From assembly GCF_024700885.2 (NCBI RefSeq), contig NZ_CP117016.1: a DNA stretch of 64,000 bases; one strand, written 5' to 3'. The translations under genes were made by a program, and so were the position numbers. The notes beneath the pieces are model-generated. The model was not told the origin of the DNA. It saw only the letters and a program-made list of their open reading frames with translations, and ran no database searches. Source of the DNA: Escherichia coli (GTDB lineage Bacteria > Pseudomonadota > Gammaproteobacteria > Enterobacterales > Enterobacteriaceae). How positions within the stretch are numbered: position 1 is the stretch's first letter; every line of letters begins with the position of its first letter. Of the stretch, positions 62,175 to 62,928 are shown piece after piece.

Positions 62175-62534
62175 ATGTTCAAGGAGAGGATGACACCAGA
62201 TGAACTTGCCAGACTGACCGGCTATAGCCGCCAGACCATTAATAAATGGGTACGCAAGGAAGGCTGGACAACGTCACCAAAACCTGGCGTCCAGGGTGGC
62301 AAAGCCCGACTGGTTCACGTCAATGAACAGGTTCGTGAATATATTCGCAATGCTGAACGTCCAGAAGGTCAGGGAGAAGCGCCTGCCCTGTCTAGTGATG
62401 CGCCGCTTGAAGTGTTGCTGGTGACACTGGCGAAAGAGATGACGCCAGTTGAACAAAAACAGTTTACATCCTTGCTTCTGCGGGAAGGGATTATCGGATT
62501 ATTACAACGCTTAGGGATTCGCGATAGCAAATAA
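62175..62534 (+). CDS. yfeC: small putative DNA-binding protein YfeC (DUF1323)
   Basis: 119 aa ORF (…LARLTGYSRQTINKWVRKEGW… HTH-like); true start may be the internal Met at MTPDEL. Confidence 0.75.
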   Translation: MFKERMTPDELARLTGYSRQTINKWVRKEGWTTSPKPGVQGGKARLVHVNEQVREYIRNAERPEGQGEAPALSSDAPLEVLLVTLAKEMTPVEQKQFTSLLLREGIIGLLQRLGIRDSK

Positions 62535-62535
62535 T

Positions 62536-62928
62536 ATGAAAAGATTACGCAATAAAATGACCACCGAAGAACTGGCTGAATGCCTCGGTGTGGCTAAACA
62601 AACTGTTAACCGTTGGATCAGAGAAAAAGGCTGGAAAACGGAAAAATTTCCTGGCGTGAAAGGCGGTCGTGCCAGACTTATTCTGGTCGATACGCAAGTT
62701 TGCGAGTTTATTCAGAACACGCCTGCGTTCCATAACACACCAATGTTGATGGAAGCTGAAGAGAGAATTGCTGAATACGCTCCTGGAGCACGCGCCCCGG
62801 CGTATCGACAAATCATCAGCGCAATAGACAACATGACTCACAGTGAGCAGGAAAAAGTTGCGCAATTTTTGTCACGCGAAGGAATTCGCAATTTCCTCGC
62901 CCGTCTCGATATTGACGAATCAGCATAA
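62536..62928 (+). CDS. yfeD: small putative DNA-binding protein YfeD (paralogue of YfeC)
   Basis: 130 aa ORF; N-terminal 60 residues align to YfeC (…LAECLGVAKQTVNRWIREKGW…GVKGGRARL…). Confidence 0.75.
   Translation: MKRLRNKMTTEELAECLGVAKQTVNRWIREKGWKTEKFPGVKGGRARLILVDTQVCEFIQNTPAFHNTPMLMEAEERIAEYAPGARAPAYRQIISAIDNMTHSEQEKVAQFLSREGIRNFLARLDIDESA

Follow-up and report, generated by a model that had tools for sequence, protein, structure and literature searches.

The last 2.5 kb of a 64,000-nucleotide stretch of Escherichia coli chromosome (RefSeq assembly GCF_024700885.2, contig NZ_CP117016.1; hereafter the window) carry two adjacent small genes, yfeC and yfeD, whose products are paralogues along their whole length. 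The reading we favor, and consider quite probable, is that the pair forms a two-gene chromosomal unit of paralogous small regulators, members of the YfeC-like family restricted to Enterobacteriaceae, derived from one old tandem duplication and probably organized as a single operon. The similarity between the two proteins is real and highly significant; their paralogy is already known and present in public annotation, and both have been studied as transcription factors. Genes and domains, the latter delimited for YfeC on the secondary structure of an AlphaFold2 (AF2) model of the fused proteins, are the following:

62175-62534, plus strand: yfeC, 119 amino acids, YfeC-like transcriptional regulator (open reading frame list, Pfam, RefSeq, published in vivo binding)
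62190-62351, plus strand: predicted winged helix-turn-helix (wHTH) of YfeC, residues 6-59
Residues ~60-75 of YfeC, plus strand: variable linker
62400-62519, plus strand: predicted C-terminal helical hairpin of YfeC, residues ~76-115, conserved
62536-62928, plus strand: yfeD, 130 amino acids, the faster-evolving paralogue
62554-62718, plus strand: predicted wHTH of YfeD, residues 7-61
62719-62796, plus strand: low-confidence linker of YfeD, residues 62-87, with 8-9 residues inserted relative to YfeC
62797-62904, plus strand: predicted two-helix hairpin of YfeD, residues 88-123, conserved

The original prediction, made from the letters of the window, had described two plus-strand frames, separated by 1 bp and sharing an alignable N-terminal region of 60 residues, followed by divergent C-termini, and had interpreted them as tandem duplicates, probably co-transcribed, of one gene for a small DNA-binding protein. 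Both frames lie where it put them and contain the peptide strings it quoted, and the spacing is right, the yfeC stop codon TAA (62532-62534) being followed by a single T (62535) and by the yfeD ATG at 62536. The lack of a significant pairwise score, named there as the outcome that would count against it, was not what was found: BLASTP aligns YfeC and YfeD with 48 identities over 127 positions (38%), at 83.6 bits and E=8e-27. The N-terminus is indeed alignable, but the similarity is not confined to 60 residues, extending over residues 2-118 of YfeC and 4-129 of YfeD. Identity amounts to 28 out of 60 positions (47%) in the N-terminal domain, 3 out of 19 (16%) in the linker and 14 out of 40 (35%) in the last 40 residues; the C-terminal halves, aligned alone, give E=6e-8. 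The C-termini were therefore wrongly described as divergent, since their last 40 residues or so bear a family-wide motif common to both proteins, and alignment points to the interdomain linker, 20-30 residues long, as the only part to have diverged. The duplication of a small DNA-binding protein, in contrast, is borne out, both products corresponding end to end to one Pfam family, being syntenic in 12 genera and binding DNA in vivo (PMC8464067), so that the interpretation is, on the whole, partly supported.

The family in question is PF07037, YfeC-like, formerly DUF1323 (in InterPro, YfeC-like transcription regulators), a model of 122 positions with a gathering cut-off of 22.9 bits. Both proteins qualify as members and cover profile positions 1-122, YfeC with 173.7 bits (E=2e-51) and YfeD with 211.2 bits (E=5e-63), and their lengths, 119 and 130 residues, fall within the range of about 115-135 residues that goes with a chromosomal location in Enterobacteriaceae for this family. 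They are the same genes as YfeC and YfeD of E. coli K-12 (b2398 and b2399 in the MG1655 record), with no difference of substance. An alignment of 39 family sequences features two conserved blocks: an N-terminal one, MT.EELA..G...QT(I/V)N(K/R)W.R..GW.T....GV(Q/K)GG(K/R)A, and a C-terminal one, M(T/S)xxEQxxLxxLLxREGIxGxLxRLGI, found in both paralogues. The linker between them is variable, and most sequences of the YfeD, or downstream, type contain 8-9 extra residues there.

The AF2 model of YfeD, obtained with the family alignment as input, has a mean predicted local distance difference test score (pLDDT) of 79.7 and features a beta-alpha-alpha-beta-beta-alpha arrangement over residues 7-61, then a linker modelled with low confidence (62-87, with pLDDT below 50 at 73-82) and confident helices at 88-98 and 102-123. 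Simple sequence searches against solved structures returned only a weak match of YfeC to the N-terminal domain of Mu transposase, and nothing else. The family profile was more informative, detecting the I-alpha domain of MuA (1tns) with E=1.1e-5 and the Mu repressor with E=0.03; hhalign comparison with protein sequences drawn from the phage Mu record gave a probability of 95% and E=2e-8 over 42 columns for residues 1-80 of MuA, and a probability of 85% for the repressor. The aligned Mu segment takes in the GW...GVKGGKA stretch, quoted in part in the original prediction and located in the beta-hairpin, or wing, region of the YfeD model. By sequence, the closest solved relatives are thus the operator- and enhancer-binding domains of MuA I-alpha and of the Mu repressor. 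The corresponding Pfam family, PF02316 (HTH_Tnp_Mu_1), has a cut-off of 23.3, which YfeC does not reach, scoring 14.8 bits: profile methods support the view that YfeC and YfeD are related to the Mu-type domain, yet are not members of its family. The two groups differ in other respects as well, the Mu domains (1tns, 1qpm/1g4d, PF02316) being alignable over only about 42 residues and forming parts of a transposase and of a phage repressor, while YfeC and YfeD stand alone as chromosomally encoded proteins and end in a hairpin of another kind. A seeming correspondence between the C-terminal motif MTPVEQKQFTSLLLREGI and helix 3 of MuA I-alpha, LPVEAKAALLLRQGEI, was rejected as a chance one, its hhalign probability being about 1%.

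Two further relationships deserve consideration. Wolf and Koonin placed yfeD/DUF1323 in a paralogue family of MerR-like helix-turn-helix (HTH) regulators (PMC3542571), and YfeD is called a MerR family protein by the Prokaryotic Genome Annotation Pipeline (PGAP). The wHTH of canonical MerR proteins, such as MerR, CueR, SoxR and BmrR, does belong to the same broad fold class, but the cut-off of MerR_1 (PF13411), 21.6 bits, is reached by neither YfeC (12.7) nor YfeD (12.3). Moreover, where canonical members have a long antiparallel coiled-coil dimerization helix directly after the wHTH and a C-terminal effector-binding pocket, the AF2 model contains neither, its wHTH leading instead into a disordered linker and then a short hairpin of helices. 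YfeC and YfeD are, in conclusion, not canonical MerR proteins. The second relationship is with excisionases, whose type of winged-helix fold is recognizable in both. HTH_17 (PF12728, cut-off 27) is passed by YfeD, with 31.4 bits, YfeC remaining below at 20.9, and TIGR01764 (cut-off 28.8) is reached by neither, the scores being 27.6 and 18.7; by sequence, the excisionase label would apply only marginally. The minimal wHTH proteins of the excisionase/MerR-like kind (mycobacteriophage Pukovnik Xis, BldC, RacA, pSK1 Par and TorI, PF12728) are without the C-terminal hairpin of the YfeC type. Furthermore, unlike excisionase-type genes, yfeC and yfeD have no integrase or recombinase partner and do not lie in a mobile element; in 12 genera they are flanked by pdeA and the two tRNA-Ala genes on one side and by gltX on the other.

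Within the window these neighbors are arranged as follows:

Upstream flank of the pair, beyond the tRNA genes, minus strand: pdeA (yfeA) (open reading frame list)
61764-61839, minus strand: alaX, tRNA-Ala(GGC) (ARAGORN; RefSeq and MG1655 annotation)
61879-61954, minus strand: alaW, tRNA-Ala(GGC) (ARAGORN; RefSeq and MG1655 annotation)
3' end, with the stop codon, at 62979: gltX, convergent with yfeD (open reading frame list, sequence)

The two tRNA genes are read divergently from yfeC and have been kept as upstream neighbors of the pair. Lying in tandem, 39 nt apart, they are themselves a second tandem duplication, on the opposite strand, adjoining that of yfeC and yfeD.

The order pdeA, tRNA-Ala, yfeC, yfeD, gltX, with a junction usually of 1 nt between the two regulators, is found in Escherichia, Enterobacter, Cedecea, Jejubacter, Atlantibacter, Salmonella, Citrobacter, Leclercia, Lelliottia, Trabulsiella, Kluyvera and Klebsiella; scanning genome contigs with YfeD gave only Escherichia and one Enterobacter locus, and the other genera come from contigs encoding relatives of the proteins. 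A HMMER search of 1.84 billion cluster representatives detected only 124 proteins at E<=1e-3, about 30 of them full-length clusters, and all named full-length relatives belong to Enterobacteriaceae. No tblastn match was found in 50,697 phage records, and those "plasmid" matches that were examined proved to be records of chromosome size or records carrying gltX. One of them, the linear 229-kb "plasmid" p2018C09-155-228k of Klebsiella pneumoniae (NZ_CP129740.1), carries, along with gltX, the syntenic block of an EAL-domain gene in the pdeA position, yfeC and yfeD, and is probably a misfiled fragment of a chromosome. In PLSDB, several "plasmid" entries of Mb size likewise resemble whole chromosomes. 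Some long proteins match the N-terminus of YfeD 3-13 times; they are generic tandem-HTH arrays and were rejected as family members. P0162 (1312 residues), P0171 and P0175, which span 336-1312 residues, contain 4-13 tandem generic HTH units, each matching the N-terminus of YfeD as well as dozens of Pfam HTH models.

Within E. coli, a 1.3-kb query, 100% identical to the chromosome of strain MLI114, is found over at least 80% of its length in 5248 out of 5426 complete genomes, where the genes are annotated as yfeC ("YfeC-like transcriptional regulator") and yfeD ("MerR family transcriptional regulator", by PGAP); the alleles of the source strain share 95-99% identity with the alleles carried by most E. 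coli. The start of yfeC is ambiguous, the protein being of 119 residues from 62175, as in our open reading frame and in the PGAP annotation of other strains, or of 114 residues from 62190 (M6), as in MG1655. The upstream start codon is kept in all 11 genera aligned, as ATG or, in Cedecea, GTG, it is preceded by AGG(G/A)A in most of them, and codon 5 varies synonymously (AGG, CGA, CGG, all Arg); because of these features the alignment favors the longer form. The AAGGAG ahead of M6, a good ribosome-binding site too, counts for the shorter one.

Both genes evolve under constraint, although not at the same rate. In a five-genus comparison, identity between genera is 62-74% for the upstream (YfeC) copies and only 34-55% for the downstream (YfeD) copies. 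The ratio of nonsynonymous to synonymous substitution rates (dN/dS) is 0.07-0.20 for both, and at the distances of Salmonella, Citrobacter and Enterobacter the dN of yfeD surpasses that of yfeC by a factor of 1.5-2. The low ratios, together with the unequal dN, indicate that both genes are functional, under purifying selection, and are diverging asymmetrically, yfeD being the faster. Four out of five downstream copies in our tree share derived characters, namely GVKGG, an extended N-terminus and the insertion in the linker, and a single duplication, preceding the split of the sampled genera, appears to be the most economical reading of these sequences, though not a proven one.

The sequences around the two genes contain a number of signals relevant to their expression:

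61987-62015, minus strand: alaWX promoter-like site, TTGACA, 17 nt, TATGAT, then a G+C-rich discriminator (scan, 11/12 match)
62104-62134, plus strand: conserved block 5' of yfeC, with invariant GTCAC..TTTC at 62104-62114 and an extended -10-like TGtTATAAA at 62126-62134 (11-genus alignment)
62164-62168, plus strand: Shine-Dalgarno-like AGGGA, 6 nt ahead of the yfeC ATG at 62175 (sequence)
62532-62538, plus strand: gene junction TAA-T-ATG, yfeC stop, 1 nt, yfeD start (sequence)
62934-62962, plus strand: terminator-like hairpin, G+C-rich, 12 pairs, then a T-rich tail (scan, sequence)

The junction between the genes consists of a stop codon, 1 nt and ATG alike in six genera (Escherichia, Salmonella, Citrobacter, Leclercia, Lelliottia and Enterobacter) and of an ATGA overlap in Jejubacter; in 10 out of 11 genera the spacing is between -4 and +9 nt, with no Shine-Dalgarno sequence, and in the window none is found 5-10 nt before the yfeD start. 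Cedecea is the exception, with a 47-nt gap containing an AAGGA of its own. Because of the 1-nt gap and of the missing ribosome-binding site, yfeD is probably translated by termination-reinitiation coupling, and the Cedecea arrangement is as this would predict. The terminator scan detected no terminator between the genes, a weaker consensus match inside yfeD (62651-62675) and, as the only convincing site, the hairpin at 62934-62962, which immediately follows yfeD and stops 17 nt short of the end of the convergent gene gltX. This hairpin is probably the terminator of the yfeC-yfeD transcript and may be bidirectional. Co-transcription of the two genes is plausible, given the gap of 1 nt, the lack of a suitably spaced ribosome-binding site for yfeD, the absence of a terminator between them and the single hairpin after yfeD.

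Upstream, the conserved block at 62104-62134 is a probable, putative promoter of yfeC-yfeD; no -35 element is recognizable there, and a consensus scan gave no promoter on the plus strand. The Shine-Dalgarno-like site of yfeC is kept as CAGG(G/A)AA in most aligned genera. A search for operator-like inverted repeats in the alaW-yfeC intergenic region found short, weak palindromes only, none of them in the conserved yfeC-proximal block. The region from 61955 to 62100 is itself unusually conserved across the 11 genera. It contains the alaWX promoter-like site, invariant in the same genera and sharing this intergenic region with yfeC: an invariant GTTGACGGGCGGCAT..ATATGAA block and a GTGTCAACGG block represent the alaWX promoter and its G+C-rich discriminator, and a further block, AATCGCTGAAAAA, is a candidate upstream activator of the tRNA promoter.

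Function in vivo has been addressed by others. Gao et al. (2021) tagged YfeC and YfeD and found both to bind DNA by chromatin immunoprecipitation with exonuclease treatment (ChIP-exo; PMC8464067). YfeC occupies 50 sites, the strongest being chaA (signal/noise 2057), and YfeD at least 36. The YfeC motif consists of TTC-rich inverted repeats 6 nt apart, and the authors propose that YfeC can form a homodimer; 16 of 20 direct targets are repressed, and yfeD RNA rises 20-fold (log2 4.3) in the yfeC deletion strain (PMC8464067). As to phenotypes, a yfeC::kan mutant of E. coli K1 colonizes the small intestine of neonatal rats poorly and shows lower lethality (PMC5847654), and deletion of yfeC in enterohaemorrhagic E. 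coli does not reduce LEE1 transcription (PMC11508082).

The favored picture can be set out as follows. The N-terminal part of each protein is a winged HTH of excisionase/MerR-like fold, followed by a variable, disordered linker and by a conserved two-helix hairpin of about 40 residues. The hairpin would mediate dimerization, allowing two wHTH domains to read inverted-repeat operators. A single old tandem duplication, earlier than the divergence of the sampled Enterobacteriaceae genera, would have generated the pair, both copies being then retained under purifying selection, yfeC as the conservative one and yfeD as the fast one. As parts of a chromosomal two-gene unit, probably one operon, the two proteins would be kept co-expressed by reinitiation of translation at yfeD after yfeC.

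A number of observations weigh against this picture. Operon status is inferred from the arrangement of the genes and their signals. In the neighbor-joining tree the downstream copies do not form one clean clade, bootstrap values being 12-72%, and the downstream copy of Cedecea neteri, 118 residues long and without the linker insertion of the YfeD type, is YfeC-like (47-53% identity) rather than similar to the E. coli and Enterobacter YfeD orthologues (38%), a sign that this lineage may have undergone gene conversion or duplicated the gene again. AF2 modelling of a fused YfeC-(G4S)6-YfeD chain, from a paired alignment of 14 rows, yielded a predicted template modelling score (pTM) of 0.28, low-confidence linkers and no confident packing of the subunits. 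Finally, the rise of yfeD RNA in the yfeC deletion strain could be due to read-through from the deletion construct, which is undescribed, and not to lost autorepression.

The ChIP-exo peak assigned to "yfeC" (2516052-2516085) falls off the yfeC core promoter under either reference, a further difficulty for the same picture. If coordinates are those of NC_000913.2, it lies at the alaX 3' end and terminator, at about 61752-61786 of the window, some 400 bp upstream of yfeC; if they are those of NC_000913.3, it lies inside pdeA. An argument for autoregulation from ChIP-exo was set aside as unusable, neither location being the promoter, and any autoregulation would be putative. The reference version is clouded by the gene assignments for the site at 3332954, common to the two proteins, which differ between the published YfeC and YfeD lists.

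Among the alternatives, an obligate YfeC-YfeD heteromer, in which the hairpins of the two paralogues pair, translational coupling fixes the stoichiometry and the heterodimer reads asymmetric operators, is the least improbable, and we regard it as unlikely. It would account for the retention, in most genera, of a stop-1 nt-start junction or of an overlap, for the conservation of the C-terminal motif in both paralogues and for the fact that the pair is never split at its locus in 12 genera, and the two proteins do have a ChIP-exo site in common, at 3332954-83. That site, however, is the only position common to the 50 YfeC sites and the YfeD sites, at least 36 in number, the lists (PMC8464067) being otherwise nearly disjoint; it is possibly a hot spot, since a peak of YciT lies beside it. 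The inverted repeats of the YfeC motif, and the homodimer proposed by the authors, also argue against obligate pairing, as does the fused model, devoid of a confident interface. A Scandinavium species, moreover, has a YfeD-like copy standing alone. This third YfeC-like paralogue, of 132 residues, lies at another locus without a tandem partner, flanked by an acetyltransferase gene on one side and by DUF2583 (PF10762), pth and YchF-type GTPase genes on the other.

Slightly less likely still appears an extended version, in which a Mu-type wHTH, domesticated in Enterobacteriaceae, acquired a new pairing hairpin, and the translationally coupled heteromer would rely on the conservative YfeC for core operator recognition and on the fast-evolving YfeD for retuning specificity between genera. 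An ancient domestication of a Mu-type domain is possible; it would concern the ancestry of these proteins, not their present function.

That the two genes are what is left of a mobile element inserted beside tRNA genes, as a pair of excisionase- or Mu repressor-like remnants, we hold to be very improbable. Kinship to the DNA-binding domain of Mu transposase and repressor, and direct adjacency to two tRNA genes, would both be expected; however, the flanks contain no annotated integrase, transposase or repeat boundary, the neighbors are the same in 12 genera, the phage search was empty, the "plasmid" matches turned out to be chromosome-sized or gltX-bearing, and both genes are under purifying selection.

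RASTA-Bacteria predicted, with high confidence, that the pair is a type II toxin-antitoxin locus (PMC2374986), and PMC5847654 still describes it as one. The two genes are indeed small, neighboring and read in the same direction, and one of them encodes an HTH of the kind usual in antitoxins. This reading is largely refuted and scarcely credible, since YfeC and YfeD are full-length paralogues, a pattern foreign to a toxin and its cognate antitoxin, no toxin family cut-off is reached (YdaS_toxin, 14-19 bits versus 30), Christensen-Dalsgaard et al., of the Gerdes laboratory, reported no evidence of a functional toxin and antitoxin (data not shown; PMC2814082), and vertical inheritance with conserved synteny in 12 genera is unlike that of typically mobile loci.

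The reading of yfeC and yfeD as an anciently duplicated unit of two small regulators carries little weight as a discovery. What it adds is a sharper description of the pair, whose similarity involves two domains, the first being a Mu-type, excisionase-like wHTH, whose tandem order and near-abutting junction are kept in at least 12 genera, and whose copies evolve at unequal rates. It also bears on how mutants in this locus are to be read. Marked deletions of yfeC are likely to alter the expression of yfeD too, and, because yfeD RNA rose 20-fold in one yfeC deletion strain, the phenotypes reported for yfeC knock-outs, namely extracellular DNA release and, for E. coli K1 in the neonatal rat, reduced gut colonization and lethality, may belong to either gene.

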